From NCBI GenBank assembly GCA_965213825.1, contig CBDCAE010000005.1:70443-134442 (forward strand): a stretch of 64,000 nt of DNA, in the 5' to 3' direction. The number at the start of each line of letters is the position of its first letter. Position 1 is the first letter of the stretch. Under the pieces are notes generated by a model. The model saw only the letters and a program-made list of their open reading frames with translations, did no database searches and was not told where the DNA came from. Positions 4,475 to 63,479 of the stretch are shown in pieces. A program made the position numbers and the translations under genes. This stretch comes from Capsulimonadaceae bacterium (GTDB lineage: Bacteria > Armatimonadota > Armatimonadia > Armatimonadales > Capsulimonadaceae).

Positions 4475-5980
4475 ATGAATTTTGAAGATCTACCAACGGT
4501 TGGTTACGAAGAAGCAAAGCCAGATGCAGGTGGTGTAGCGCAGGCTTTTGCCAGAATCGGTTACCAACTTGAAGAAGCCTTAGCAGACCTAGTAGACAAC
4601 TCAATCGATGCCGGAGCAGGCAATATCCTGATCCGATTCTATCGCGATTCTAACTCCATCAAACGGATAGTTGTGGTCGATGATGGTCGTGGAATGTCGC
4701 CCACCGAGATGCGACGAGCCATGCAATTTGGCGTACGCCAAAAACACAAAAAGTCAGATCTAGGCAAGTACGGCATGGGTCTGAAAACGGCTTCATTCAG
4801 TCAATGTCGTTCTTTAACTGTCCTCACAAGACATCGAGAAGTATCAACAGGTCGTCGGTGGACTTTATCATCAATTGAAAAAGGTTGGCTTACGGAAAAG
4901 ATTTCTGATGCTGCGACACACAATTTTTTTTTGGGCTTCTGGACTTACTTTGACATCATCCAGCATGGGTCTATCATTGTGTGGGACGAACTTGATCAAT
5001 TCAAAGTTTTAGAGCATGGTTTCGAGGCTGGGCTAACGCGCATTCTGAGACAGATCGACAAGCATCTTGGATTGGTCTTTCATCGTCTTATTAACGAAAG
5101 CAAATGTCAAATCTCGGTAGACACATATAATTACCAAACGGATGCGCCCGGTCCGCAGTTTGTTGTCAAGCCACTCGACCCGTTTTCCTATATACGCACT
5201 GGTAAAACAGGTTACCCAAAGATATTCAAAATGCTATTTTCTGATCTTCCGCCACTCAGGTTGGAGGCTCATATTTGGCCGCCTCAGTCGGTTCTTCCAG
5301 GCTACAAATTGGGTGGAGGAAATGTTGCGGCCCGGCAGGGTTTTTATATATATCGGAACAACCGTCTTATACAAGCAGGTGGCTGGAATGGTTGGCGAGA
5401 AAGCGACTCCGAGCCACATGTTTCCTTGGCACGGATCAAGATTGACATCAACGATCAATATGGAGACGTGTTTCGTTTGAAGGTGCAGAAGTCAGGAACG
5501 GATGTATCTCAGGACTTTCGTAATGCTCTTAGCGTGGTTTCGAGCGGAAAAACAACGCTCACAGACTTTGTTCAGGATGCTGTCAGCACATACAGAAAGT
5601 CGCAGGCGAATCTACGAAGAACGTGCCTTGTTCCTGGAAAGGGCATACTGCCAAAACTTCAGTCCGCAATGAAGTCGGTCCTGGCAGAGAAAAATGACAT
5701 GATTGGAACAATAGACTTTGAATGGAAGCAAATGCCACCAAACATTGTCTTCTATGCTGCTGCCGATGAATGCCGTATTTACTTGAACAGTGAGTATCGT
5801 GAGAAACTATCCCAGAAAACAAGAGCGTCAACAAATGATGCTACTGTTGCAAAGACACTACTCTTCATGCTGTTGCGGGATGAGTTGCAGAGCAGACGGC
5901 AAAGCAAAAAAAGCACAAGAGCAACCGAAGCCCTTAATTCTATATTGTACGCGATAGTAAGCGGAGACCACAATGGCTGA
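4475..5980 (+). CDS. GHKL-superfamily (MORC/MutL-like, HATPase_c_3-type) ATPase, R-M associated
   Basis: Bergerat-fold motifs: EALADLVDNSIDAGA (N box), VVVDDGRGM (G1), LGKYGMGLKTAS (G2). 8-nt overlap (ATGGCTGA) with the next ORF. Confidence 0.85.
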   Translation: MNFEDLPTVGYEEAKPDAGGVAQAFARIGYQLEEALADLVDNSIDAGAGNILIRFYRDSNSIKRIVVVDDGRGMSPTEMRRAMQFGVRQKHKKSDLGKYGMGLKTASFSQCRSLTVLTRHREVSTGRRWTLSSIEKGWLTEKISDAATHNFFLGFWTYFDIIQHGSIIVWDELDQFKVLEHGFEAGLTRILRQIDKHLGLVFHRLINESKCQISVDTYNYQTDAPGPQFVVKPLDPFSYIRTGKTGYPKIFKMLFSDLPPLRLEAHIWPPQSVLPGYKLGGGNVAARQGFYIYRNNRLIQAGGWNGWRESDSEPHVSLARIKIDINDQYGDVFRLKVQKSGTDVSQDFRNALSVVSSGKTTLTDFVQDAVSTYRKSQANLRRTCLVPGKGILPKLQSAMKSVLAEKNDMIGTIDFEWKQMPPNIVFYAAADECRIYLNSEYREKLSQKTRASTNDATVAKTLLFMLLRDELQSRRQSKKSTRATEALNSILYAIVSGDHNG

Positions 5981-6965
5981 GGCAACTAGACACCTGACAT
6001 GGGACAACTTTAACACAATTATCACTGAGGCTATACCAGGGCTTCATCGGGTTACCGGCTCACCTCCGGTTGATCTCTTCGTTGATCCAGAAGGCGCGAG
6101 GATTGGTTTGCGAGTACCGTATCCGTATGAATGTACAGTCCCCCCAAGTCCACTATCAGAAGTGAAAATAGAGCGTATCATGATCGCAGGGGAGGCTTTT
6201 GTTGATATTACAACCGGTAGCAGGCTTCTTTACGCTGAGTTTTATTCGCTAATGATCACTATTGCCAATAAAATTCAAAGTGACAAAATGGATCCCCTTG
6301 TTGCATTCGGGGAAACACTGGACAGTTGGCGGGTCCTGTTGCGATCAGTAGCAGTTCTAACTGAGGACCAGCAACTGGGCCTTCTTGGAGAACTTTGGAT
6401 GCTAGAGCGTCTGCTCATGAACAAAGGACCACGGGCGATACGTTTCTGGGTTGGGCCTCTTGCTGAAGAACACGATTTTCGTCTGACTGATCATGATTTT
6501 GAGGTCAAGTCTACCCGATCGTTACAGCGCGTGCATATTATTAGTAGTCTTCAACAACTGCAAAATGGACTAGGGCGGCGGTTGTTCCTTTTGTCGTTAC
6601 AATATGGTCTAGCACCAACTAACTTATCGCTCCCAAGCGCGGTTCAGAATGTCCGCGCTTTGTTGAGCGGAGATATTGAAGAACTTGCGACCTTCAATGA
6701 CTTGCTCACAAATGGCTCTGGATACCGCGATGAGTACGCAATACATTACCCGGCAACTTATTTTATGAGAGCACAGCCAGTAATCGTGCCGATTGACGTA
6801 TCTTTTCCAAAAATAACACCGTCGACTATAGCCAGCATTCATGATGGCAACCGGATCAGCGATGTGAAATATCGCGTGAATATTGAAGGTATGGGCTTTA
6901 AGGATGGGAGCGATCCATTCTGTTCTATTTTACCAGCGGTGGGAGGAAGTATTGTCAAACTTTAA
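5973..6965 (+). CDS. PD-(D/E)xK motif protein (putative nuclease subunit)
   Basis: EEHDFRLTDHDFEVKSTRS fits D...(D/E)xK. Overlaps both neighbouring ORFs. Confidence 0.7.
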   Translation: MAEATRHLTWDNFNTIITEAIPGLHRVTGSPPVDLFVDPEGARIGLRVPYPYECTVPPSPLSEVKIERIMIAGEAFVDITTGSRLLYAEFYSLMITIANKIQSDKMDPLVAFGETLDSWRVLLRSVAVLTEDQQLGLLGELWMLERLLMNKGPRAIRFWVGPLAEEHDFRLTDHDFEVKSTRSLQRVHIISSLQQLQNGLGRRLFLLSLQYGLAPTNLSLPSAVQNVRALLSGDIEELATFNDLLTNGSGYRDEYAIHYPATYFMRAQPVIVPIDVSFPKITPSTIASIHDGNRISDVKYRVNIEGMGFKDGSDPFCSILPAVGGSIVKL

Positions 6966-9870
6966 CGTATCGACCGTTCTGCAGATTGTAAAGAGTGCTT
7001 TCGGCGGTATGGTGGCAGGACCCACAACTTTAGGTAGAAACCTGGAATTTTTTTCCAGCCAACTTTTGCCCGGCGAGACGTTGACGACGCAGAAGTTAAT
7101 CGATTGGCTCAGGCTTGAAGATGCAAATGATCCCATAAAAGCCGTAGTGAAAAGGCAACTTCAACAATGGGATTTTGAGGGTCATTTGGCGTGGATAGCC
7201 GACACCCTCAAAAACTCGAACAAGCGCAGGCAGCATATATACGACAGTCTTGGAATTGAAGGAGAAGATCGTAATTTCATGGATGATGTATTCCCGCCAT
7301 ACATCATGATCGAGCCTGTTGTCGTCATCGCTGAGGAGCATGAACCATGGTACCAATTATCTGCATCAAGACAAGAGTTCTATTGGAACGCTTATTGCAA
7401 GCAACTTCGGGAAGTAGCAGGTTGGTCTGAGGAAAGTGTACAGGTACTGGCTGATAGCACCGAGAAAGTAGTCGAGCGTATATCAAATCCGGAGCGTGCT
7501 GAAGCCTACCAGGCGAAAGGATTAGTTATCGGCTATGTTCAGAGTGGAAAAACCGCTAACTTCACAGGCGTAATTGCCCGCGCCGCTGATGCTGGCTACA
7601 GGCTGATCATTGTCCTTGCCGGAACCACCAACAATCTTCGCCAGCAAACACAGCGTCGTATTGATAAAGAGTTGGTCGGGATAGAGTTTCTTGAACACGA
7701 ATATGCAAATGATGATGACTATAGCGCGTTTCTGAGTCATGGAACATTGCCCTCGACGATGGGCGCGTTTGATTGGCAACGCCTCACCGGGCCAAACGAG
7801 GATTATCAGGCACTGCGTCAAGGTATCGAGTCGCTTAATTTTCCACGCTTTGATCCGTCACTTCCGTTTTATCATTCCGTCAATCTGCAACATGCAACCG
7901 CACGGATTATGGTGGTGAAGAAGAGCCCAGCAATTTTGAAGAAGGTTGCAGCGGACCTGAAACGGATCAAGGAGCAGAAAAAGGTGCGGATTGGAGATAT
8001 ACCTGCTCTGATTATTGATGATGAATCTGATCAGGCATCAGTAGACACCACCAAACCAAGTCCTCAGCAACGAAAAAAGCGAACGGCTACTAACAGAGCC
8101 ATAGTTGGTCTTTTGGAAGAACTGCCTAGGGCGCAGTATATAGGCTATACTGCTACGCCGTTCGCAAATGTCTTTATCAATCCTGAAGATGCTGCTGATC
8201 TTTTTCCAAAAGATTTTCTTGTTCCACTTCCGCGTCCGAAGGGATACATGGGAGCCAATGATTTCCACGATCTTGAAGCCGAAATTCCTGAAGGGTATCT
8301 ATCAAATGAACGTGCGTTTGTACGCCCTGTCACCGGATCGGATGAGCAGCCAGAAAATCTGCAAAAAGCACTGGACGCCTACGTCCTTTCCGGTGCCATC
8401 AAACTATTTCGCGAGAAGCATGTCCCACAGATCAGGTTCAAGCATCACACTATGCTCGTCCACCACTCGCAGAGCACTGAGACACATGAAACCGTTGCGA
8501 GGACAGTTGATCGCTTGCTAGAAAACTCTGGATACGATGCGGGGGCTGGTCTTCAGCGTCTTCAAAGCCTGTGGACGAATGATTTTCTTCCGATAAGTAA
8601 TGAACGTGAGACTCCTTGGCCTCTCCCGTCAACATTCTCCGAGTTACTGCCGTTTTTAGGGGAATGTCTTCATCGGTTACGTAGTGGTGGTAGATCAGTA
8701 ATTGTGGTCAATGGCGATCATGATGCTCCCGATTTCGACCGGGATCGAATATGGAAAATTCTAGTGGGCGGTGTCAAGTTATCACGCGGTTACACGGTCG
8801 AGGGACTTACAGTTAGTTATTACCGTAGAGTTACGCGTTCTGCGGACACCTTGATGCAGATGGGCAGATGGTTCGGGTTTCGCGAAGGTTATCAGGATCT
8901 AGTCCGCCTGTTCATAGGCACAAATGAGCCTTTAACAAGATACAAAAAAACTAATCTATTCAAAGCATTTGAGGCAGTCTGCCGTGACGAGATGGAATTT
9001 CGTACCGAATTGCAGCGTTACGCGATGCCTAGTGATGGCTCAAAACCTGTAACACCTATGCAGGTGCCTCCTCTCGTGCCTGCCCACCTATTACAACCGA
9101 CGGCAACGAACAAGATGTATAATGCTGTCATCAAGTCACAGAACTTTGGTGGTAAGAATATACAATCGACCTTGGCTCCCTTCAGGGACGAAGACGTGCT
9201 TCACAATGAGACGGCGATGAAGTCACTGCTTCAGAACCGCACATTGAAGATACGATCGCTGAAGGTTAAGACAGAAAAGGAAGCGCTTCAGAACTCTTCC
9301 TTTGTCACAGAAATAGAACCAGATGCGATAATCGAGTTCCTCAAAACATATCGCTGGCTTAACCTTAAGCAAAATTTAGCGTTGCAATTAGAGTTTCTCG
9401 CCGGAAAACATGGCGATCCTGAAATAGACCGCTGGCTTTTCATCGCACCAATAGCAGACACAGACAGAACTTGGACGGTTAATGATGCTGATCTGAATGT
9501 TGTAGAGCGTTCCAGGACAGAGACACCAACAGGAAGATACGGAGTTTATACCACATCGAGAGATGTAGACATTGCCAGACCGCTGGTTGGTCGGCATGGA
9601 GCCACTGAATTTAGTGACGATCTTCAAGAGTTAATTCGCCCGAAACAGGCAGTTCTTCTGTTCTACCCGGTGCGGGACCGCAACGATCCAGAATATGTCA
9701 AAACCGCTGAAGGCCCGAGGGCTTTTGTGACTATGGGTTTCGCACTCATGTTACCAGAAAACAGTATTAAGTCGAAAATAAAATTTGGCGTCAGAGACAG
9801 TAAAAGAAAAGATGAAGTTGTCGTTGAAACAGATGGTCTTCGGGAAGATCTGATAACTGACATTGTTTAG
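6952..9870 (+). CDS. Z1-domain P-loop NTPase (SF2-like)
   Basis: Walker A GYVQSGKTANF, Walker B-like ALIIDDESDQAS, GYTATPFAN, KLSRGYTVEGLTVSYY and LMQMGRWFGFREGY (Z1 hallmark). The longest ORF starts at 6883. TTG 6952, preceded by GGAGG (6942-6946), is the more likely start. Confidence 0.85.
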   Translation: MSNFNVSTVLQIVKSAFGGMVAGPTTLGRNLEFFSSQLLPGETLTTQKLIDWLRLEDANDPIKAVVKRQLQQWDFEGHLAWIADTLKNSNKRRQHIYDSLGIEGEDRNFMDDVFPPYIMIEPVVVIAEEHEPWYQLSASRQEFYWNAYCKQLREVAGWSEESVQVLADSTEKVVERISNPERAEAYQAKGLVIGYVQSGKTANFTGVIARAADAGYRLIIVLAGTTNNLRQQTQRRIDKELVGIEFLEHEYANDDDYSAFLSHGTLPSTMGAFDWQRLTGPNEDYQALRQGIESLNFPRFDPSLPFYHSVNLQHATARIMVVKKSPAILKKVAADLKRIKEQKKVRIGDIPALIIDDESDQASVDTTKPSPQQRKKRTATNRAIVGLLEELPRAQYIGYTATPFANVFINPEDAADLFPKDFLVPLPRPKGYMGANDFHDLEAEIPEGYLSNERAFVRPVTGSDEQPENLQKALDAYVLSGAIKLFREKHVPQIRFKHHTMLVHHSQSTETHETVARTVDRLLENSGYDAGAGLQRLQSLWTNDFLPISNERETPWPLPSTFSELLPFLGECLHRLRSGGRSVIVVNGDHDAPDFDRDRIWKILVGGVKLSRGYTVEGLTVSYYRRVTRSADTLMQMGRWFGFREGYQDLVRLFIGTNEPLTRYKKTNLFKAFEAVCRDEMEFRTELQRYAMPSDGSKPVTPMQVPPLVPAHLLQPTATNKMYNAVIKSQNFGGKNIQSTLAPFRDEDVLHNETAMKSLLQNRTLKIRSLKVKTEKEALQNSSFVTEIEPDAIIEFLKTYRWLNLKQNLALQLEFLAGKHGDPEIDRWLFIAPIADTDRTWTVNDADLNVVERSRTETPTGRYGVYTTSRDVDIARPLVGRHGATEFSDDLQELIRPKQAVLLFYPVRDRNDPEYVKTAEGPRAFVTMGFALMLPENSIKSKIKFGVRDSKRKDEVVVETDGLREDLITDIV

Positions 9871-19141: not shown

Positions 19142-20296
19142 CTACTTCGTGTACACCCGCTTCCGGCTAGGCTTCACGGCCGCAGCCGCTTTCGCAGCGC
19201 GTTCGGCCTCTCGGGCTTGGTAGTTCGCCAGAACACCGGCGACAGGGGCGGCAGCGTCGTGAACTGCCTTCAACGCCTCGACTTCATCGTGCGAATAAAT
19301 GTCATGCGCTTGATCAGTCCGGTGTCCCATGATTTTTTTGGACATATCTTTATCCACGACGTCATGTTTTGATGAAGAATAATGGCGCAAGTCGTGCCGG
19401 CGAATCACGCGTTCAATGCCAGCACGGACGCGGCGTTTATTCCACTGTCGCCCCCAGGAACCTGGGTCGATTTTCCCCCCGGATTCGCTGACAAAAATGA
19501 AGTCATTACCAGTTTGCATTTTTAGGCGCATTTCCAACCACGGTTCGAAGGCCACGTCGCAATATTCCTTTGACAAGAACGCAAGCCGGTCGTCGCCATT
19601 TTTCGTTTTCTCCAACAAGATCGTTCGCCGCCCCTGGTCGTCACGCGGAGACAGGTGGCACAGACGCGCAGAGAAAAACTCCCCCACCCGCATTCCTGTC
19701 TCAGCCAGTCCCAATGTCGCAGCAATCTCGCGAACCCGGAAGTAACGCCGCGCATCCAGGGACTTGAAGCGCGACCCGCCAGTGGCTTCGTCAGCCCAGT
19801 CTTCCTCGATCTGTCTCACAATTGCGTCAAGTTCATGTTCGGCGACAGAGCGTTTTTCTGACTTGTCGCAGATTTCCCACGCTTCAGCGCGTTCCAGAAG
19901 GTCTTTCTTGAAAAGTTCGGCGCGGTAGGCCCACGCAAACACCGCCTTTGTCTTGACCTCCCGGTGCTTCACGCTGCGATCCTTCATTCCCCGAGCCTTG
20001 TATTCGCGCAGGCACTCCCAGAAATTTCGGGCATTAACCCCGGCAGGCCTGATTCCCTGTCGCGTATACCATTCTCCAACGTCTTCGAGCGTATTGCGAA
20101 CGTCGTACAGATGCTTACGCGTCCGGATTTTGTTTTTGTTTTTGAGGTACTCGTCGTACCCGGAAATTAACCCGTCCCAGCCAATCGTTTGACCGAGGCT
20201 GAACTGGCCTTCCTCTTCTTCTGCTTGTTGCCAGACGTATGACATTTCTCTCTCCCTGTGCTGTTCTGGGCTGCTGACCACATGCTGTTCGTCCAT
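19142..20296 (-). CDS. int: Tyrosine recombinase / phage-type integrase
   Basis: LAETGMRVGEF (Arg I), RRHDLRHYSSS (H-x-x-R), GHRTDQAHDIYSH (His/Tyr). Adjacent to the tRNA 3' end. Confidence 0.9.
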   Translation of the reverse strand: MDEQHVVSSPEQHREREMSYVWQQAEEEEGQFSLGQTIGWDGLISGYDEYLKNKNKIRTRKHLYDVRNTLEDVGEWYTRQGIRPAGVNARNFWECLREYKARGMKDRSVKHREVKTKAVFAWAYRAELFKKDLLERAEAWEICDKSEKRSVAEHELDAIVRQIEEDWADEATGGSRFKSLDARRYFRVREIAATLGLAETGMRVGEFFSARLCHLSPRDDQGRRTILLEKTKNGDDRLAFLSKEYCDVAFEPWLEMRLKMQTGNDFIFVSESGGKIDPGSWGRQWNKRRVRAGIERVIRRHDLRHYSSSKHDVVDKDMSKKIMGHRTDQAHDIYSHDEVEALKAVHDAAAPVAGVLANYQAREAERAAKAAAAVKPSRKRVYTK

Positions 20297-20415: not shown

Positions 20416-20487
20416 AGCCGACACGCGGATTCGAACCGCGGACCTGCTGTTTACGAAACAGCTGCTCTACCACTGAGCCATGTCGGC
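20416..20487 (-). tRNA. tRNA-Thr (anticodon CGU)
   Basis: Reverse complement: GCCGACA-TG-GCTC-AGTGGTA-GAGC-A-GCTGT-TTCGTAA-ACAGC-AGGTC-CGCGG-TTCGAAT-CCGCG-TGTCGGC-T. Full cloverleaf. CCA is not encoded. Confidence 0.9.
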
Positions 20488-33442: not shown

Positions 33443-33459
33443 GTCTCCAATTGTAAGTC

Positions 33460-33557
33460 GCTAAATCAGCGAGCGGCTTAGAGGTATAGATAGTGACTGA
33501 TGAGATCGGCGCTTAATGCTTCGGGTGATCTGTCTATGGTTTAGACGCCACGGCGCT
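33460..33557 (-). pseudogene. Decayed second copy of the DUF58 gene 3' end (last ~33 codons)
   Basis: My hand alignment to 34750-34848 gives about 80 of 98 positions identical plus one 1-nt indel. The copy contains in-frame TAA stops. Confidence 0.75.
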
Positions 33558-33570
33558 TGAAGTCGCAGTT

Positions 33571-34113
33571 TCATCTATTGATCCTTGCGGCAATTTTTGG
33601 ATACAGCGCATCCAAATCATCTTCTTCCCATTTCATGCCGGCAGGCTCGCCTGGAATGAAACCGGCTCCATCAGACGGCATCTCACGGCCTGCCTTTTCT
33701 TCATAAACTTCACCTGCAACGTAGCCGAGTTCTTCGCATTCCAGCCAAGCATCACCCCACTCGATGTCAGTTTTGGTGAGATCAGCGAGGCCGTCTGGGT
33801 CAGCTAACGCCGCCTCAAATATGGTCTGCCCTTGCCCAATGAGCCACCGGCGAAAATACTCGAAGCCATCATCCGAGCCGCCGCCATTTATCAGATAGGC
33901 GGCTCCCCACAAATCCCACCGATACGCGGCTTGTCGGCACTCGTTGAAGATGCGCTCAAACGCAATGAGTTCTTCTACCGGAATTAGCGACAGAGAAGAT
34001 TTAAGAGCAACAGCCTGCGCCTCGCATTCGCCGCCGCTTTTCGCGTGAGCGTCCTCAATTAGTTGCCAGAATTGTGCTTTATCCAAATCGTCTTTCTCAA
34101 TCCACAAGGCCAT
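33571..34113 (-). CDS. DUF4240 domain protein
   Basis: YRWDLWGAAYLINGGGSDDGFEYFRRWLIGQG. Confidence 0.7.
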   Translation of the reverse strand: MALWIEKDDLDKAQFWQLIEDAHAKSGGECEAQAVALKSSLSLIPVEELIAFERIFNECRQAAYRWDLWGAAYLINGGGSDDGFEYFRRWLIGQGQTIFEAALADPDGLADLTKTDIEWGDAWLECEELGYVAGEVYEEKAGREMPSDGAGFIPGEPAGMKWEEDDLDALYPKIAARINR

Positions 34114-34741
34114 TGTGCCTCAGCCAGCCCACTACCTGCGACATTTGTTCGCGGCGTCCCTGCCAAAAAGCGTTCGTCAATCTTCCTTTGTACAAGCTAT
34201 TTTTCGAAGCAACAAACTCGATGAGATGGTTAATTGCCATGTCGGTTTTCAGGTTCTGCCAGGCATCAAGGTAACTTGATAAATCATCTTCCGCTTGCCC
34301 GATCGCACACAGGTACTCGTCTATCGCAACCGCCTCCATCGGTATGGACAGTACGAACAGCCACAGTGCCATCAGGTAGTGCCGAACAGCCGCGCGTTCC
34401 TGCTCCGGCCAGTCCTTCCAGTCTGCATAATGCAGCTTGCCGAAAAGAACTTCTACATCTATTTCATGGGCGATGCTGTCTGCTTCGGTGACCAGTTCCA
34501 GCAGACGCGGCAGGAAGTGCTTGAAGTCATTCTCAGTTCCCCATGTCGTTAAGGCTTTGAAGGCGTAGCGGCTGAGGTCATCCGTCATAAGGCCACGCAA
34601 AGGTTTCCGATGAAGATTGCTTTTATCTTCGTCCGAAGCGCAGCAAGGGCATCCATCTATCTTTTGGGCAATCGGATAATCTGTGAAGACTTTGTAAAGT
34701 TCTTCAATCGCCACTGCCAGCGCTTGTTTTTCTGAAGTCAT
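34097..34741 (-). CDS. Hypothetical protein (CPCC motif; immunity-protein-like context)
   Basis: 214-aa ORF starting 8 nt after the DUF58 stop. IDGCPCCASDEDK ... FKHFLPRLLELV. Confidence 0.5.
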   Translation of the reverse strand: MTSEKQALAVAIEELYKVFTDYPIAQKIDGCPCCASDEDKSNLHRKPLRGLMTDDLSRYAFKALTTWGTENDFKHFLPRLLELVTEADSIAHEIDVEVLFGKLHYADWKDWPEQERAAVRHYLMALWLFVLSIPMEAVAIDEYLCAIGQAEDDLSSYLDAWQNLKTDMAINHLIEFVASKNSLYKGRLTNAFWQGRREQMSQVVGWLRHNGLVD

Positions 34742-34749
34742 AGATGTCT

Positions 34750-36069
34750 CTAAATCAGCGAGCGGGCTTTGAGGTCTAAGTAGTGGTTGATGAGGTCGGC
34801 GCTGAGGTCTTCGGGAGGGCTGTCTACGGTCCAGACGCCCCGGCGCTTTAGTACCGAAATGGCGGCGCGGCGCTCCTGCAAGACCTGGACGGCGACGGCT
34901 TTCTGGTAGACTCCCGCGCTGTCTTCGGGAATGCTGTTGGCGGCGGCCAGGATGTTCGGGTCGCTCACGGTGACGCAGACGACGCGGTGGCTGTCGGAGA
35001 GCATGGGGACGGCGTCGAGGATTTGGGCGGAGGAGTCCGGGTCTACGAGGTCAGAGAACAGCACAATCAAAGAGCGGCGGCGCCAGCGGGTGGAGAGGTT
35101 CTGGAAGGCCGCTTTGTAGTCGGTCTCGACCATGCGGGCGTTGAGGTTGTAGAGGCTTTCCAGAATGCCGTAGACCTGGGCTTTGCTTTTGGCGGGCGGC
35201 AGGTAGGCACGGACTTCGGCGTCAAAGGCCATCAGGCCCACTTTGTCGTCGCCTGCCGCCGCGACATACGCCAGCATCAGGGCGGTGTTGACCACATAAT
35301 CCAGCTTCGCCATCTTCTGAATTCCTTGCAGCATGTTCCGGCCTGTGTCCAGCATCAAAATGATGTTCTGCGAGCGCTCCGCCTCATACTGCCGCGAAAT
35401 CAGCTTGCCCCGGCGGGCGGTCGCGCTCCAATCAATCTTTTTGTATTCATCCCCCGGCACATACTCCCGCAGTGACTCAAACTCCGAGCCGCCTCCGCGC
35501 ACTTTGGCCGTGCGGATGCCGAGCTGCATCAGCCGCCCGCGCCGGGCCAGCAGCTCGTATTTCGCCGTTTCCACGAGGTTCGGATAGACTTTGATCGTCT
35601 GTTCAGCGCGAATTCGGCCCTGACGCTCGATCAGCCCTAAGCGCCCCGGATAGCGAAAAAAGAGGTCTCCAAAGGCAAAGTCCCCTTTCGCGGGCGGCGT
35701 CACCTGGTAGGCGAATGACAGCGGGCGCGGGTCAGGCGGCAAAAGGAGTGTGCGCTCGGCAGAGCTGCCCAGGTCAAAGGTCGGCGGCGGCAGGTCACGC
35801 ACCCGCAGGCGCAGAGCCATTGGTGACTTGTTCTGCGCCGTCACCGTCACAGGGTTTGCAACCCCTAACGACAGTTTTTCGTCTACCGCGCGGGTCAGCG
35901 TCAGGGCCGTTTCCGGCTTTGGCGCGGCGAAGAAATCGGCCAGTGTGCAGGCCGCAAGCACGGCATTGTAAACCAGCACGACGGCCAGCAGCCAGGGCGC
36001 GAAACCGACAAGCAGCAGCGGCAGTGCACCGAGGGCGAGAAGAACGACAAAGCGGGGAGTTAAACGCAT
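34750..36069 (-). CDS. DUF58 (vWA-like) protein
   Basis: GGSEFESLREYVPGDEYKKIDW, two N-terminal TM segments. Confidence 0.85.
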   Translation of the reverse strand: MRLTPRFVVLLALGALPLLLVGFAPWLLAVVLVYNAVLAACTLADFFAAPKPETALTLTRAVDEKLSLGVANPVTVTAQNKSPMALRLRVRDLPPPTFDLGSSAERTLLLPPDPRPLSFAYQVTPPAKGDFAFGDLFFRYPGRLGLIERQGRIRAEQTIKVYPNLVETAKYELLARRGRLMQLGIRTAKVRGGGSEFESLREYVPGDEYKKIDWSATARRGKLISRQYEAERSQNIILMLDTGRNMLQGIQKMAKLDYVVNTALMLAYVAAAGDDKVGLMAFDAEVRAYLPPAKSKAQVYGILESLYNLNARMVETDYKAAFQNLSTRWRRRSLIVLFSDLVDPDSSAQILDAVPMLSDSHRVVCVTVSDPNILAAANSIPEDSAGVYQKAVAVQVLQERRAAISVLKRRGVWTVDSPPEDLSADLINHYLDLKARSLI

Positions 36070-58729: not shown

Positions 58730-59332
58730 TCAGCCCCACGTCTTCGGCAGGTGCAGGGTTTCGCCGTTCAGCGACAGATAATCTTCCGCGCCAACACTTG
58801 CCAGCAAATCCGCCGCCATCGGGTCGAAGCCGCCGCTTTCGGTCACAAACTCATCCCGCAGATAAACGCCGACAATCTGCGCCGCCACAAACTCACACTT
58901 GCTTGGTGGCAGCGCAAAGATGCTGGTCACACGGCATTCTATGCTCGCCGGACACTCGCCGATGCGGGGGCAATCTACGGTCCCGACTTGAATTGCCGTC
59001 AGACCCAGCCGCGCAAAATCGTCTTCCACCGTCGTGCCTTCTGCCGACTGATTCATAATCTCGGCCAAATAACGCGGGACTAAGTTAATCACAAACACCT
59101 GCGTCGCCTTGATGTTCTCCAGCGTGTGCTTGTCTTCGCCCTGCCGCTGCGAGAACGAGACACCCAGCATCGGCGGGTAGGTCGCCAGCCCCGCATACGA
59201 ATTATACGGCGCGATATTCGGTACGCCCGAAGCGCTCTGGGTCGAAATCAGCGCAAGGGGCCGGGGCGCAATCAAAGCCGCCCAGATTTTCCCGTTGACC
59301 TCGCGCGGAATGTCTTCAGCGATGTAGTGCAT
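58730..59332 (-). CDS. Flavin reductase-like (FMN-binding split-barrel) protein
   Basis: ALIAPRPLALISTQSASGVPNIAPYNSY. Confidence 0.7.
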   Translation of the reverse strand: MHYIAEDIPREVNGKIWAALIAPRPLALISTQSASGVPNIAPYNSYAGLATYPPMLGVSFSQRQGEDKHTLENIKATQVFVINLVPRYLAEIMNQSAEGTTVEDDFARLGLTAIQVGTVDCPRIGECPASIECRVTSIFALPPSKCEFVAAQIVGVYLRDEFVTESGGFDPMAADLLASVGAEDYLSLNGETLHLPKTWG

Positions 59333-59771: not shown

Positions 59772-59776
59772 AGAAG

Positions 59777-59829
59777 TTACTCTTCCACCCGAATCCAGTT
59801 TTCAATGGCGAAAGCGATGTGCAGGCAGT
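59777..59829 (-). pseudogene. Second, orphan copy of the hom 3' end (last 16 codons plus stop)
   Basis: 44/53 nt identical to 60547-60599 (hand count). Reads CLHIAFAIENWIRVEE*, against hom RLHIVSAIENWIRVEE*. Confidence 0.8.
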
Positions 59830-59831
59830 AA

Positions 59832-60176
59832 TTAGAACGGCAAATAGCGGACTTGGTTGGCGTACTCTTCTAGCTCACTGACAAAAGCTATGGTTTCCAG
59901 GTCGTCAATGCACTGGCCGATGACGGTGGTTTGCTGATGCTGGTAAAGGACGCCGACAAAATATGTGCCGTTTGTTTGACGCCGGTTGGCTTCAATGAGA
60001 AAATCGTCGTCCTGCGTGAATATCAGGCGGTTCAGCACTGCCGCGCGGTCTAAGAGAGCGGAGTCATCCAGCCGCGCCGAGCCGTCTTCCTGCGCGGTCA
60101 CCACGTCCACACCTCGCCGCCGCAAGCCGCGCGTGATGGCTTCTTTGACGTGTACATCCATGTAGAGCGCAACCAT
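59832..60176 (-). CDS. DUF5615 (PIN-like, Mut7-C-type) putative toxin
   Basis: MDVHVKEAITRGLRRRGVDVVTAQEDG...LIFTQDDDFL. 1-nt overlap (TGATG) with the upstream gene. Confidence 0.75.
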   Translation of the reverse strand: MVALYMDVHVKEAITRGLRRRGVDVVTAQEDGSARLDDSALLDRAAVLNRLIFTQDDDFLIEANRRQTNGTYFVGVLYQHQQTTVIGQCIDDLETIAFVSELEEYANQVRYLPF

Positions 60177-60544
60177 CAGGCAGCGACTTCTCCGTTCTTC
60201 GCCGCGTTGCGCCGACGTATCTCATCGCGCCATGCCGTATTACTAGTTCTTTCGTAGCCACGTTGATAGGCGGCTTGACCGATGCGGATTAGCTCGTCAA
60301 TTTCAGGCTGATGATCGTAATAGTAGGCAAGAGCGGCATGGATTTGGGCAAGGGTCAAGTGCGGGTGGTCCGCCTGGATGTCTTCGGCAAGCTGTCCCTG
60401 CACATGGTCTAAGACCACTTCCACGACCTTGACATTGCTGTCATCAATCCAGGCGACGCCGCGCTCGTCCCGATGGATATGCAGGGTTGCGGTGTAAGGC
60501 CCGATCTCAACCGGCAGCGGTGGTTGGAGCGAAGAGGTTGACAT
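60176..60544 (-). CDS. DUF433 putative antitoxin
   Basis: VKVVEVVLDHVQGQLAEDIQADHPHLTLAQIHAALAYYYDH. Starts 2 nt after the hom stop. Confidence 0.75.
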   Translation of the reverse strand: MSTSSLQPPLPVEIGPYTATLHIHRDERGVAWIDDSNVKVVEVVLDHVQGQLAEDIQADHPHLTLAQIHAALAYYYDHQPEIDELIRIGQAAYQRGYERTSNTAWRDEIRRRNAAKNGEVAA

Positions 60545-60546
60545 GG

Positions 60547-61839
60547 TTATTCTTCTACCCGTATCCAGTTCTCGATGGCGGAGACGATGTGCAGGCGGTT
60601 GATGACATCGAGCGCAGAGCGTAAATTGGCTTCCAAAGTTTGGTGGGTAATCCAGACGATCTCGGCGTCGCCGCCCGGCAGGGCACGCTGGACGACGCTT
60701 TCAATACTCACGTTGAAGTCGCCGAAGACGGAGGCAAGGCTTGCCAAGACTTTCGGGCGGTCGTGGGCGGTCAGGCGGATGTAGTATTTTGTGCGAAGCC
60801 GGTCAATCGGCAGTGCGGGTTTTTGGTCATAGCAGGTGCAGCCTAAACGGCCCGTCGCGCCTCTTTGGATGTTGCGGGCGATCTCGATGACGTCCCCGGC
60901 GACCGCACTGCCCGTCGGCAGGCTGCCCGCGCCGCGCCCGTAGAACATGACATCGCCGACGGCGTTGCCCTTTAAGTAGATGCCGTTGTAAACGTCATTG
61001 ACCGATGCTAAAGGATGCGAGATAGGAAGCAGGACTGGGTGAACGCGAACTTGCAGAGCATCGCCGAGGTCCTGTCCCATGCCGACGATTTTGATGACAT
61101 AGCCGAGTTCTTTGGCGACGGCGATGTCTCGCTTAGAGATCTTGGTGATGCCTTCGACATAAATGTCTTCGGGCAGGACGCGCGACGTGAACGCAATAGA
61201 CGAGAGAATGGCCGTCTTGTACTGGGCGTCGTAACCTTCAATGTCGTTGGTCGGGTCGGCCTCGGCGTAGCCCTTTGCCTGCGCTTCGGCCAGCACATCG
61301 GCGAAGTCGGCGTCTTCGGCGGTCATTTTGGAGAGAATGTAGTTGGTCGTACCGTTGACAATACCCATGATCTCGGAGAATTTGTTTGCGGCAAGCGCTT
61401 GTTTCAGAGGCTGAATGATCGGGATGCCGCCTCCGACACTGCCTTCAAAGCTGAAGTCCAGGTCGCGGTTTTCAGCCTCGTGCAGCAAGTCATGGCCCGC
61501 TTTCGCCATCATTTCTTTGTTGGCTGTGACGATATTCTTGTTGTTTTTAATCGCCCGAAGCACGAACTCGTGTGCAGGGTCTACGCCGCCGATCAGCTCG
61601 CAGACAATGTCTATTTCGGGGTCATCGGTGACATCTTCGGGCCGCTCGGTCAAAATAGCCGGGTCAACGTCCACCGCGCGGGCTTTGGACTTGTCCCGGA
61701 CTGCGATGCGCCGCACAACCACCGGAACGCCGACTTTGCGGGCGATGTCTTCGGCGTTTTCGGCCAGCACACGCACGGTGCCACTACCGACGACGCCGAG
61801 ACCGAGTATTCCGACGTTAATTTGTTTTTTATCGCTCAC
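60547..61839 (-). CDS. hom: Homoserine dehydrogenase with a C-terminal ACT domain
   Basis: INVGILGLGVVGSGTVRVL, TANKEMMA, GIVNGTTNYIL, C-terminal ACT-like region. Confidence 0.9.
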   Translation of the reverse strand: MSDKKQINVGILGLGVVGSGTVRVLAENAEDIARKVGVPVVVRRIAVRDKSKARAVDVDPAILTERPEDVTDDPEIDIVCELIGGVDPAHEFVLRAIKNNKNIVTANKEMMAKAGHDLLHEAENRDLDFSFEGSVGGGIPIIQPLKQALAANKFSEIMGIVNGTTNYILSKMTAEDADFADVLAEAQAKGYAEADPTNDIEGYDAQYKTAILSSIAFTSRVLPEDIYVEGITKISKRDIAVAKELGYVIKIVGMGQDLGDALQVRVHPVLLPISHPLASVNDVYNGIYLKGNAVGDVMFYGRGAGSLPTGSAVAGDVIEIARNIQRGATGRLGCTCYDQKPALPIDRLRTKYYIRLTAHDRPKVLASLASVFGDFNVSIESVVQRALPGGDAEIVWITHQTLEANLRSALDVINRLHIVSAIENWIRVEE

Positions 61840-61844
61840 GGGGG

Positions 61845-62357
61845 TTACTGCGGCTCCACAAAAATCAGCGGCTGCCCCTGCTGGACCAGCTTGCCGCTCT
61901 CAACCGGCATTTCGGTGACACGGCCCGCCACTTCCGACGGCACTTCGCTGTAAACCTTCATCGCTTCGATCAGGCCAATGGACTGACCGACTTTCACGAA
62001 GTCGCCGACCGAGACAAACGGCGGGTCGTCGGGCGACGGCGACTGGTAGAAGACGCCGACCATGGGGGACTCCAAAGCGATTGCCGTGGACTTCGCTTTT
62101 ACCGGCGTCAGTACCGGCGTTTCCGAGTACGCGGGGGACTGCGCCGCCGGCAGCAAATGCGGATGCGCCGGGACTGCCAGCCCCGCGGGCGCAGCAGCCG
62201 GTGCAGAGACCGCCGCTTTGACCGTCAGCGAGACGCCGCCCTCTTCTACGGTCAGCTCCGACAGGCCGTGCGCCGCGACAAGCTGCGCGAGTGTTCGCAC
62301 CGACGCCGTAATTGTCTCATTTTCGATTTCTTCGGCCACGCAATACTCCTGCGTCAT
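61845..62357 (-). CDS. accB: Biotin carboxyl carrier protein-like (biotinyl domain)
   Basis: GQSIGLIEAMKVYSEVPSEVAGRV (EAMK biotinylation motif), Ala/Pro linker. Internal ATG 62357 avoids overlap with pheA. Confidence 0.7.
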   Translation of the reverse strand: MTQEYCVAEEIENETITASVRTLAQLVAAHGLSELTVEEGGVSLTVKAAVSAPAAAPAGLAVPAHPHLLPAAQSPAYSETPVLTPVKAKSTAIALESPMVGVFYQSPSPDDPPFVSVGDFVKVGQSIGLIEAMKVYSEVPSEVAGRVTEMPVESGKLVQQGQPLIFVEPQ

Positions 62358-62411
62358 TGTAGCACAGGAGCGGCAGGAATTCCTATGCTGCCTGCCGAAT
62401 ACACATTCACT

Positions 62412-63479
62412 ATGAGCCTCCAAGACCTGCGACAAAAGATTGACGGCATTGACGCCGAGATTGTCCGGCTGCTGAATGACCGGGCGGAAATATCGCTGGA
62501 AGTAGGCCGGCAGAAGTCGGAAGACAAAAGCGCCCGGTACTTTGCGCCGGAGCGCGAGCGGGACATGATCGGACGGCTGTTAGAATTGCACGGCACCGGC
62601 GCACTGCCGAAAGAGTCACTTCTTGCCATCTACCGAGAGATTATCTCGGCATCCATCGCCCTGCAAAAGCCGATGACCGTGGCGTATTGGGGGCCATCGG
62701 GAACATTTACGGAGATGGCCGCCATGTCCCGCTTCGGCTCGTCGGCATCATACTACGACTGTGCGGGGATCGCGGACGTATTCGGGGAAGTCGAGCGCGG
62801 GCGGGCGGACTACGGGGTCGTGCCGGTGGAGAACTCGACCGAGGGCGTGGTCAACTACACGCTCGACATGTTCCACGAAACATCGCTCCGCATCTGCGCC
62901 GAAATTTTTGTCACGATTATCCAAAACCTGCTAACCCATGCGAAGTCTCTCGGCGAAATCCAGCGCCTCTACACTGGCCCGCAGCCGCTGGCCCAGTGCC
63001 GCCGGTGGCTGGACCAGCATCTGCCGGGCGTCGAAATCATCGAGATTATGCCGACCTCAAAGTCAGCCGAACGCGCCGCCGCCGATCCGCAGGGCGCAGC
63101 GATTGCCCCGAAGCGCTCGTCGGAAGTCTACGGCGTCCCGATGCTGTTTGAGTCCATTGAAGACAGCCCGCACAACCGCACCCGCTTTCTGGTCATCGGC
63201 CGCAACGAGCCGCCGCCGACAGGCCGGGACAAGACTTCAGCCCTGTTCGCCGTCAAAAACGAGCCGGGGTCTCTGGGCCGCGCCCTCCGGGCCTTCGAGA
63301 CCTTCGGCGTCAACCTGACGATGGTCGCCACTCGTCCCGCCCGTAACACGGCCTGGGAGTATGTGCAGTTTGTGGACTTTCAAGGCCATGAGAACGACGA
63401 GCCGGTCAAGCTCGCTTTGGATGCCCTACGGGCGCAGTCCATCTATGTGAACGTGCTAGGTTCGTATCCAGAGGGTTAA
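62412..63479 (+). CDS. pheA: Bifunctional chorismate mutase / prephenate dehydratase (P-protein)
   Basis: LQDLRQKIDGIDAEIVRLLNDRA (CM), VAYWGPSGTFTE and VPVENSTEGVV (PDT), ACT domain ALFAVKNEPGSLGRAL. ATG 62412. Confidence 0.9.
   Translation: MSLQDLRQKIDGIDAEIVRLLNDRAEISLEVGRQKSEDKSARYFAPERERDMIGRLLELHGTGALPKESLLAIYREIISASIALQKPMTVAYWGPSGTFTEMAAMSRFGSSASYYDCAGIADVFGEVERGRADYGVVPVENSTEGVVNYTLDMFHETSLRICAEIFVTIIQNLLTHAKSLGEIQRLYTGPQPLAQCRRWLDQHLPGVEIIEIMPTSKSAERAAADPQGAAIAPKRSSEVYGVPMLFESIEDSPHNRTRFLVIGRNEPPPTGRDKTSALFAVKNEPGSLGRALRAFETFGVNLTMVATRPARNTAWEYVQFVDFQGHENDEPVKLALDALRAQSIYVNVLGSYPEG

Follow-up and report, generated by a model that had tools for sequence, protein, structure and literature searches.

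How does a toxin-antitoxin (TA) cassette that encodes no recombinase come to sit directly behind a housekeeping gene, and why is it followed by a second copy of that gene's 3′ end? The question is raised by a 64,000-nucleotide (nt) stretch of contig CBDCAE010000005.1 from a Capsulimonadaceae bacterium (assembly GCA_965213825.1; hereafter the window), where the minus strand carries, in order, a biotin-carrier-like gene, the homoserine dehydrogenase gene hom, a DUF433 gene, a DUF5615/PIN-like gene, a displaced copy of the hom 3′ end, orf141 and a flavin reductase-like gene. We refer to the functional end of hom as tail A and to the displaced copy as tail B or copy B. A sequence-only reading of this DNA had placed the end of hom at 60547, the DUF433 ATG 2 nt past the hom stop and the DUF5615/PIN-like start in a 1-nt overlap with the DUF433 stop, a layout that the open reading frame (ORF) coordinates confirm. 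Tail B begins 2 nt past the PIN stop, and the enclosed cassette of 0.72 kb consists of the two TA genes alone, with no integrase or transposase inside. Comparison of the window locus (WIN) with related loci retrieved for this purpose (L-numbers) reveals empty, single and stacked states in which each cassette is trailed by a hom tail, and we propose, with slightly better than even confidence, that the hom tails serve as joints, or short homology arms, for cassette exchange.

A second hom tail behind the cassette

Tails A and B form a direct repeat reported by the repeat search, identical at 45 of 54 positions (83%), which equals the 44/53 counted earlier over 59777-59829. Copy B reads CLHIAFAIENWIRVEE and the hom C-terminus RLHIVSAIENWIRVEE, each ending in a stop, so that the peptides first read from the two copies hold. 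Within the window, copy B is the only stop-terminated duplicate of a gene's C-terminal 16 residues lying up to 4 kb downstream of ORFs of at least 100 amino acids (aa), and at the DNA level gene-tail copies number two in all, at hom and at a DUF58 locus described below. Copy B belongs to no ORF: its frame is open for 30 codons only and contains no ATG, GTG or TTG start, and translation of the copy was rejected for want of a start codon. Compared with fresher copies in L148 and L150, the left edge of the window copy (to 59831) carries a 1-nt deletion, and the repeat unit in those fresher copies is 57 nt, giving a range of about 54-57 nt.

Neither hairpins nor inverted repeats were found in the tail, with z-scores of +0.4 to +1.0 against shuffled sequences for B on either strand and A on its coding strand. 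Tail A (60582-60595) and the interior of the DUF433 gene (60397-60410) share a 14-nt inverted match that was no better than many chance pairs, and a known RNA family or a tRNA was rejected for the site, which gave no Rfam match and no tRNA. Window copy B differs at 5/51 positions from the hom tail of L004 and at 9/51 from its own tail A, with no clear nearest allele, and similarity could not tell which of the two window tails is native.

Differences between the tails are mostly synonymous

Over the 16 comparable codons, tails A and B of the window show six synonymous and three non-synonymous differences, a ratio with P=0.005 if both copies were neutral and P=0.064 if A were under purifying selection and B neutral. 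In the last 10 sense codons plus the stop, all five differences are synonymous (P=0.004), as the sequence-only reading had stated, for a sub-window picked after the fact. The same comparison at other loci gave synonymous to non-synonymous ratios of 7:2 in L150, 3:1 in L148, 4:1 in L097 and 12:6 in L082. Pooled with the window, these five loci show 32 synonymous changes among 45 differences (P<1e-5 against a model of an in-situ duplicate with a neutral copy B), and three different, unrelated host genes show 22 of 32 (P=6e-4). The near-intact B copies of L148 and L150 stand at a proportion of synonymous differences (pS) of 0.30-0.55 from tail A, similar to hom alleles of different species, with only 1-2 amino-acid changes.

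This synonymous excess across the collection of loci, rather than in the window alone, supports the view that both tail copies descend from functional alleles and diverged mostly while coding. The earlier claim that the tails diverged as functional hom termini is therefore borne out by the pooled data and is marginal for the window by itself. The claim that the repeat is not an in-situ duplication is overstated for the founding event, which may or may not have been one.

Empty, single and stacked states, and the hybrid make-up of the tails

A comparative series was assembled from the contexts of orf141 homologues (L148-L156), which share the same downstream genes (Table 1). At the empty site of L154, whose hom fragment has 98% amino acid identity with the window hom over 134 aa, the junction reads GAAGAGTAACTTATATGAGCTGCGAGCCTGAAACTGAA, and the window junction past copy B reads GAAGAGTAACTTCTATGAACTGCGAGCCTGAAACTGAA; window copy B and its junction to orf141 are collinear with the real hom tail and orf141 at L154. 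Units with one cassette carry either the TA pair with a 57-nt tail (tail57) or MazF with a 50-nt tail (tail50), the latter having a left boundary unlike that of tail57 (GCCTGCA...). In the stacked array of L148, both types follow one another, and both pseudo-tails are nearly intact at the amino-acid level.

The right part of the tail follows a different rule from the left. The form GGATACGGGTAGAAGAATAAC..ATG precedes DUF433 in WIN, L150, L007 and L148, whatever lies upstream (MazF in L148), and the form ..GAAGAGTAACTT.TATG precedes orf141 in WIN-B, L148-B and L154, with a variant, GAAGAATAACTT.TATG, before orf141 in L155 and L156. The tail copies are thus hybrid, the left boundary tracking the upstream cassette and the right part tracking the downstream gene, which indicates that the tails are recombination joints. 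The left boundaries differ (57 versus 50 nt), and at the present divergence the changeover from the upstream-linked to the downstream-linked part can be placed only in the mid-tail region. Window copy B ends in GGTGGAAGAGTAA, 5 nt ahead of the orf141 ATG, and so may preserve the original ribosome-binding context of that gene.

Table 1 Features of the window and states of the related loci.
Feature	Position or locus	Strand	Basis or arrangement
hom, homoserine dehydrogenase, 430 aa, host gene with duplicated 3′ end	60547..61839	minus	Pfam Homoserine_dh 1.2e-64, NAD_binding_3, ACT
Tail A, functional last 17 codons and stop of hom, left repeat member	60546..60599	minus	repeat search, alignment
Tail B, non-coding copy of hom 3′ end including stop, right repeat member	59776..59829	minus	repeat search, alignment
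DUF433 (COG2442) antitoxin-like gene, 122 aa	60176..60544	minus	Pfam DUF433
DUF5615/Mut7-C-like PIN toxin-like gene, 114 aa	59832..60176	minus	Pfam DUF5615
Low-divergence tract shared with L007, hom nt 1111 to first bases of DUF433, including tail A	60537..60729	minus	pairwise comparison
orf141, hypothetical protein, 141 aa	59346..59771	minus	no Pfam match; homologues P0001-P0008; follows hom tail at empty site
Flavin reductase-like gene, conserved right border of hot spot	58730..59332	minus	Pfam Flavin_Reduct
Biotin carboxyl carrier-like gene upstream of hom	61845..62435	minus	Pfam Biotin_lipoyl; upstream position kept in relatives
Second window case, DUF58 tail repeat and cargo	33457..34848	minus	repeat and ORF analysis
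Empty state	L154		real hom tail, 5 nt, orf141, flavin reductase
One unit	WIN, L009, L150		hom, TA, tail57, orf141
One unit, other cargo	L155, L156		MazF, tail50, orf141
Stacked state	L148 1-2359		MazF/PemK, tail50 (412-461), DUF433/PIN, tail57 (1178-1234), orf141, flavin reductase

The unit is family-wide and occupies a hot spot

A protein search with hom returned 67 orthologous loci, the close ones all from metagenome-assembled genomes of Capsulimonadaceae or Armatimonadota. These are species-level relatives, with pS of 0.45-0.60, or 0.7-1.2 synonymous substitutions per synonymous site (dS), from the window; exact-sequence look-ups with the window orf141 and PIN proteins gave no match. Across Capsulimonadaceae, the interval between hom and the flavin reductase gene is hypervariable, holding TA pairs, MazEF, immunity-like genes or nothing. 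The flavin reductase gene starts 3-4 nt past the hom stop in L012, L021, L023 and L025, and in other genomes 1-3 small same-strand genes lie between, starting at or a few nt past the hom stop and including DUF7660, a PemK/MazF pair, DinB, SMI1/KNR4, DUF2750 and several unknowns. Transposases of the insertion sequence (IS) type occur in the same interval of three relatives (L010 8111-9213, L030 8383-9465 and L042 8017-8997; DDE_3 with HTH, DDE_Tnp_1 and rve), showing that the hot spot also accepts conventional mobile elements.

The DUF433/PIN pair was found at 14 loci (WIN, L006, L007, L009, L015, L030, L068-L073, L148 and L150), with MazF rather than hom upstream of it on the L148 contig. A second hom tail directly follows the PIN stop in 7 of the 13 scorable TA loci (WIN, L006, L009, L072, L073, L148 and L150); L007, L030 and L068-L071 have the pair without it, and L015 was left out of the scoring as its contig ends. 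Among about 40 TA-less hom loci, none carried a second tail, the arrangement that the sequence-only reading had named in advance as telling against itself. The local-alignment score for a second hom tail is 61 in the window versus 13-24 in all TA-less relatives, and the TA-bearing L007, L015 (contig cut) and L030, which have no copy B, also score 13-24.

In all seven B copies the left boundary is identical, (TA)ATCAACCGCC, abutting the PIN stop codon, which argues for a single founding event. The TA-plus-tail unit is therefore old and family-wide and not recently acquired by the window lineage, and the earlier suggestion that the cassette arrived in this lineage together with a foreign tail is too simple.

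Integrases were found neither among the ORFs at 58.5-64 kb nor in the corresponding intervals of related loci (IntI tested), and none was seen inside or adjoining the 14 TA loci; the DDE transposases of L010, L030 and L042 lie outside the TA-tail units. Downstream of copy B in L006 (about 8040-8100), we observed no flavin reductase match and, by eye, a tRNA T-arm-like sequence on the opposite strand (GGGGGGGACTCGAACCC); this locus may be rearranged downstream of copy B.

Exchange, conversion and decay at the tails

The sequence-only reading had also allowed the reverse, namely that a hom 3′ end arrived at the cassette, and this alternative fared better. Tail A and the DUF433 junction fall within a tract of ~190 nt at the end of hom that differs from L007 at 9 positions in 193 nt (95% identity), against ~18% divergence (~82% identity) elsewhere. 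Its pS of 0.19 is the lowest of all pairs and segments, compared with 0.46-0.71 in other hom segments. The TA genes are as diverged from L007 as the remaining sequence, and the tract ends at the cassette junction. This low divergence suggests that tail A was exchanged by a short recombination tract.

The left 20 nt of copy B carry derived states common to several TA subclades: WIN, L006 and L009 have a T at an Arg codon, L006 and L072/73 have a C at column 8, and WIN shares GCTTT with L072/73, for example. Such sharing indicates an inherited pseudo-sequence rather than a fresh foreign terminus, and the mutually incompatible partitions of these states point to patchy conversion or recombination. 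Copy B tracks its own tail A in L009 and L073 only, leaving general concerted evolution of the two tails unsupported, and patchy A-to-B gene conversion also contributes.

Gene-tail repeats at other loci

The window holds a second case. About 102 nt from the end of a DUF58 gene (34750-36069, minus strand), the stop among them, occur twice, with A at 34746-34848 and B at 33457-33558. Between the two lies 1.2 kb of cargo, comprising a 214-aa ORF with no Pfam match (34097-34741) and a DUF4240 gene (33571-34113). This copy contains in-frame stops and a 1-nt deletion and resembles a decaying pseudo-tail. A shared motif between the hom and DUF58 cassette junctions, which the sequence-only reading had put forward as a check, was not evident on inspection. 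Its wider proposal, a recurrent route that places cassettes behind genes without a linked integrase, gains from the DUF58 locus, from the family-wide hot spot and from the empty, single and stacked series of L154, WIN, L155 and L148.

Members of the same TA family are flanked by gene-tail repeats on two unrelated metagenome contigs: in L082 (947-2357) by a 203-nt repeat (91% identity) of the 3′ end of a 119-aa gene, and in L097 (3267-4388) by a 38-nt repeat (87% identity) of the 3′ end of a 90-aa gene, the latter in a group of small ORFs, one of them a further DUF433-like ORF. As a control, flanking tail repeats were found in 0 of 61 pseudo-cassettes. Repeats at four further metagenome loci (L074, L078, L090 and L104) were set aside, as they appear, judged by the repeat sequence, to be paralogous ends of another small TA-like gene rather than target duplications. 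Direct repeats of 29-263 nt that are not gene tails also flank this TA family in L084 (3329-3357/4423-4451), L093 (3275-3317/5401-5443), L101 (3-79/1135-1211) and L103 (146-408/3565-3827), and in L103 they are the 5′ ends of two paralogous genes repeated around a 3.4-kb segment.

Elsewhere in the window, three adjacent plus-strand genes at 4475-9870 (HATPase_c_3, DUF4420, which is PD-(D/E)XK-like, and Z1) have the look of a defence-type cluster. A Phage_integrase ORF (19142-20296, minus strand) adjoins the sole tRNA gene of the window, tRNA-Thr(CGT) at 20416-20487, and the segment 19142-20487 is probably the edge of an integrated element.

The DUF433/DUF5615 pair is a predicted TA system

Both proteins of the cassette exceed their Pfam cut-offs (DUF433, 31.0 bits against 23.6; DUF5615, 40.4 bits against 23.8). 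The genes are small, adjacent and on the same strand, with the antitoxin gene first and overlapping stop and start codons, and we predict from these features that they form a VapBC-like type II TA pair with the corresponding activity. Residues D7, E30, D31, D56 and D92 of the PIN-like protein are invariant in five orthologues and may be catalytic. The ratio of non-synonymous to synonymous substitution rates (dN/dS) relative to L007 is ~0.13 for DUF433 and ~0.1 for DUF5615, indicating purifying selection on both genes. In some relatives the toxin gene has decayed: it carries an in-frame stop at the conserved TAQEDG motif in L070 (4001-4345) and L071 (1774-2118) and is a split ORF in L150 (3390-3735), and the DUF433 gene is intact in all three despite this decay.

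A PIN-COG2442 family of VapBC-like systems has been predicted, and one member, Synechocystis VapBC10, has been validated experimentally by toxicity and neutralisation (PMC3834315); COG4634 has been grouped with Mut7-C-like PIN domains (PMC5499597, PMC2701414). The window pair shares with these systems the domain pair, the gene order (DUF433 then PIN-like) and the overlapping stop and start codons. VapBC10, by contrast, has its own autoregulated promoter, whereas the window pair abuts the hom stop with no promoter detected. On the minus strand between the biotin-carrier-like gene and orf141, a scan limited to the sigma-70-like promoter type found no promoter, and no terminator was found there either; transcription of the cassette probably runs through from the hom operon.

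Proposed mechanism and alternative explanations

Under the recombination-joint explanation, a single founding insertion would have generated a long target duplication of the hom tail, creating a unit made up of cargo and a trailing hom tail. Later crossovers inside this tail of ~50 nt, between genomes with different cassettes or none and in whichever direction the transfer may have run, would insert, delete, stack or swap cassettes. Tails A and B would thereby come to derive from different functional hom alleles, giving rise to mostly synonymous differences, and the direct repeats would permit both precise cassette loss and A-to-B gene conversion. With the unit itself encoding no recombinase, RecA-type homologous recombination after DNA uptake would be the most economical enzyme system. 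Hybrid tails could arise by integration of a circular tail-plus-cargo molecule through a single crossover or, in a formally equivalent manner, by a double crossover whose long arm is hom and whose short arm is B, and the tail copy would restore the ribosome-binding context of the displaced downstream gene.

Several points weigh against this explanation. An arm of 50-57 nt is short for RecA-dependent exchange, and the collections searched contained no near-identical donor and recipient pair, all relatives standing at a pS of about 0.4-0.6, so that no transfer event was caught. For the window alone, the synonymous bias is non-significant unless a sub-window is chosen, and some of the linkage between the right part of the tail and its downstream neighbour could stem from selection on ribosome-binding context instead of co-inheritance. 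Furthermore, the identity matrices of the PIN and DUF433 proteins are roughly congruent with that of hom, and vertical descent with loss would explain much of the TA distribution without cassette mobility. The B copies of L006, L009, L072 and L073 are decayed by indels, frameshifts or stops, and derived changes common to several lineages, along with indels, are found in the left part of B, as expected for an old in-situ pseudo-copy.

The most serious alternative, which we nevertheless regard as unlikely, builds on these latter observations. A single ancient in-situ event, such as staggered-break repair or template switching at TA insertion, would have duplicated the last ~57 nt of hom, and B would be a vertically inherited, decaying pseudo-tail, sometimes overwritten by conversion from A, with an immobile cassette. 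The synonymous excess would then come from later replacement of hom alleles, including tail A, by ordinary homologous recombination. The single left boundary, the B-specific derived states common to TA subclades, the tracking of A by B in L009 and L073, the co-variation of L072 and L073, the congruent matrices and a recombination tract that spans A but not the TA genes all favour such a history. On its own, however, it leaves unexplained the stacked MazEF-tail50-TA-tail57 array and the right part of tail50, which is DUF433-type in L148 but orf141-type in L155/L156. It also fails to account for the matching synonymous bias seen in other organisms at host genes unrelated to hom (L082 and L097) and for the allele-like synonymous distance from A of the near-intact L148 and L150 copies.

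We consider it improbable that the tails are attL and attR sites of a tyrosine or serine recombinase encoded elsewhere, with the cassettes being minimal integrative elements, or remnants of these, mobilised in trans. Integrase-mediated islands typically show 40-60-nt repeats where a conserved gene ends, the replacement end being provided by the element, and the hom repeats fit this pattern; serial insertion at one site would also yield arrays such as that of L148, and the window does contain a Phage_integrase ORF next to tRNA-Thr. Yet that sole window integrase lies 40 kb away at a classical tRNA site, and the 14 TA loci have none in or beside them. Moreover, the cargo is only 0.72 kb and lies within 2 nt of both tails, the left boundaries differ by cassette type (57 versus 50 nt), the repeats at other loci range from 38 to 203 nt, and the tail lacks both inverted repeats and a hairpin. 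Chance similarity, or an assembly chimera of cassette-plus and cassette-minus strains, is hardly credible: although the window probably comes from an uncultured organism and the relatives are all metagenome-assembled genomes, the 45/54 match is in register with the stop, 2 nt past the cargo stop and unique in 64 kb by the peptide test, and the same architecture and boundary recur in six other independent assemblies from different samples, including records titled single-chromosome (~4 Mb, e.g. L006).

Comparison with known systems

For restriction-modification systems, insertion accompanied by a long target duplication was reportedly described by Nobusato et al. in 2000 (in Gene 259:99). In this mode, termed "insertion with long target duplication" by Furuta et al. 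2010 (PMC2853133) and in a later review (PMC3874152), the target duplications that accompany a restriction-modification system are long and variable (~100 bp), and no mobility genes are linked to it. The published repeats are 44/46 to 47/47 identical, and the cargo is a restriction-modification system in all described cases (PMC2853133). The hom locus resembles these cases in three ways. A small addiction-type unit that has no mobility gene lies between repeats much longer than transposon target duplications; the repeated sequence is present in a single copy where a related genome has an empty site (here L154, with both flanks aligned); and among the reported repeats, some extend into the 3′ end of a neighbouring gene. 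Measured against the features set out by Furuta et al. 2010, the repeats of the hom locus exceed 30 bp (54 nt), an empty site is present, and the insert is below 20 kb (0.72 kb) with no integrase or transposase. The differences are that the cargo is a TA pair, with MazEF at the same hot spot and a DUF4240 pair at the DUF58 locus; that the repeats are 83% identical, against 95-100%, with mainly synonymous differences; that the units are stacked and shuffled; and that the hosts are Armatimonadota. The 83% identity together with the synonymous bias speaks for two alleles and against a fresh duplication. The locus is a variant form of a known but poorly understood insertion mode, here with TA cargo and a family-wide comparative series. 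A full-text literature search for "insertion with long target duplication", covering a part of the journals, returned no TA case.

Integron arrays offer a second parallel, since in both, cassettes with no detected promoter lie in one orientation downstream of an expressed gene, are joined by a repeated recombination site and vary between relatives. TA cassettes are common integron cargo. Unlike integrons, however, the hom locus has no IntI integrase and no attC hairpins, its linker is the coding 3′ end of a housekeeping gene, and its arrays comprise 1-3 units; an integron attC site was rejected, the tail having no hairpin. Integrative elements that target gene 3′ ends or tRNA genes also duplicate the target end on both sides and leave the host gene intact, and the displaced copy may differ by lineage, but the present units differ from them in having no integrase in the element, a size of 0.7 kb and variable boundaries. 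A diversity-generating retroelement was rejected as well: no reverse transcriptase was present among the ORFs neighbouring the hom cassette, and the mismatched positions hold A in 1/9 cases (copy B) or 3/9 (copy A).

In Enterobacteria, intercistronic TA insertions are known for mazEF in relA-mazG and ccdO157 in folA-apaH (Fraikin et al. 2020, PMC7167474). As here, TA pairs interrupt functioning operons between two genes, and the loci concerned are plastic, the elements found there varying from strain to strain. That account describes no flanking gene-tail duplication, unlike the present locus, and calls the mechanism of TA integration "unelucidated" (PMC7167474).

Implications

The hom locus and its relatives provide a concrete, testable route by which TA pairs can be placed behind a conserved gene. 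With them, the range of insertion with long target duplication, previously described for restriction-modification systems, comes to include TA pairs, other small cassettes and the Armatimonadota, and the signature of synonymous differences between gene tails could serve as a cross-genome screen. More tentatively, and as a proposal we hold to be possible rather than likely, copies of housekeeping coding 3′ ends might act as linker sites of an integrase-free, integron-like array, in which the trailing tail is a portable homology arm for stacking and precise loss of small cassettes (TA pairs and immunity-like genes) and for their capture by any relative at the matching conserved gene, expression is provided by the host operon, and TA systems have a general means of spreading without mobile-element machinery. 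If the homology-arm reading is true, it would explain why TA systems are frequently located in intercistronic spots of housekeeping operons, why such spots hold different elements in different strains, and how TA pairs can be lost precisely.

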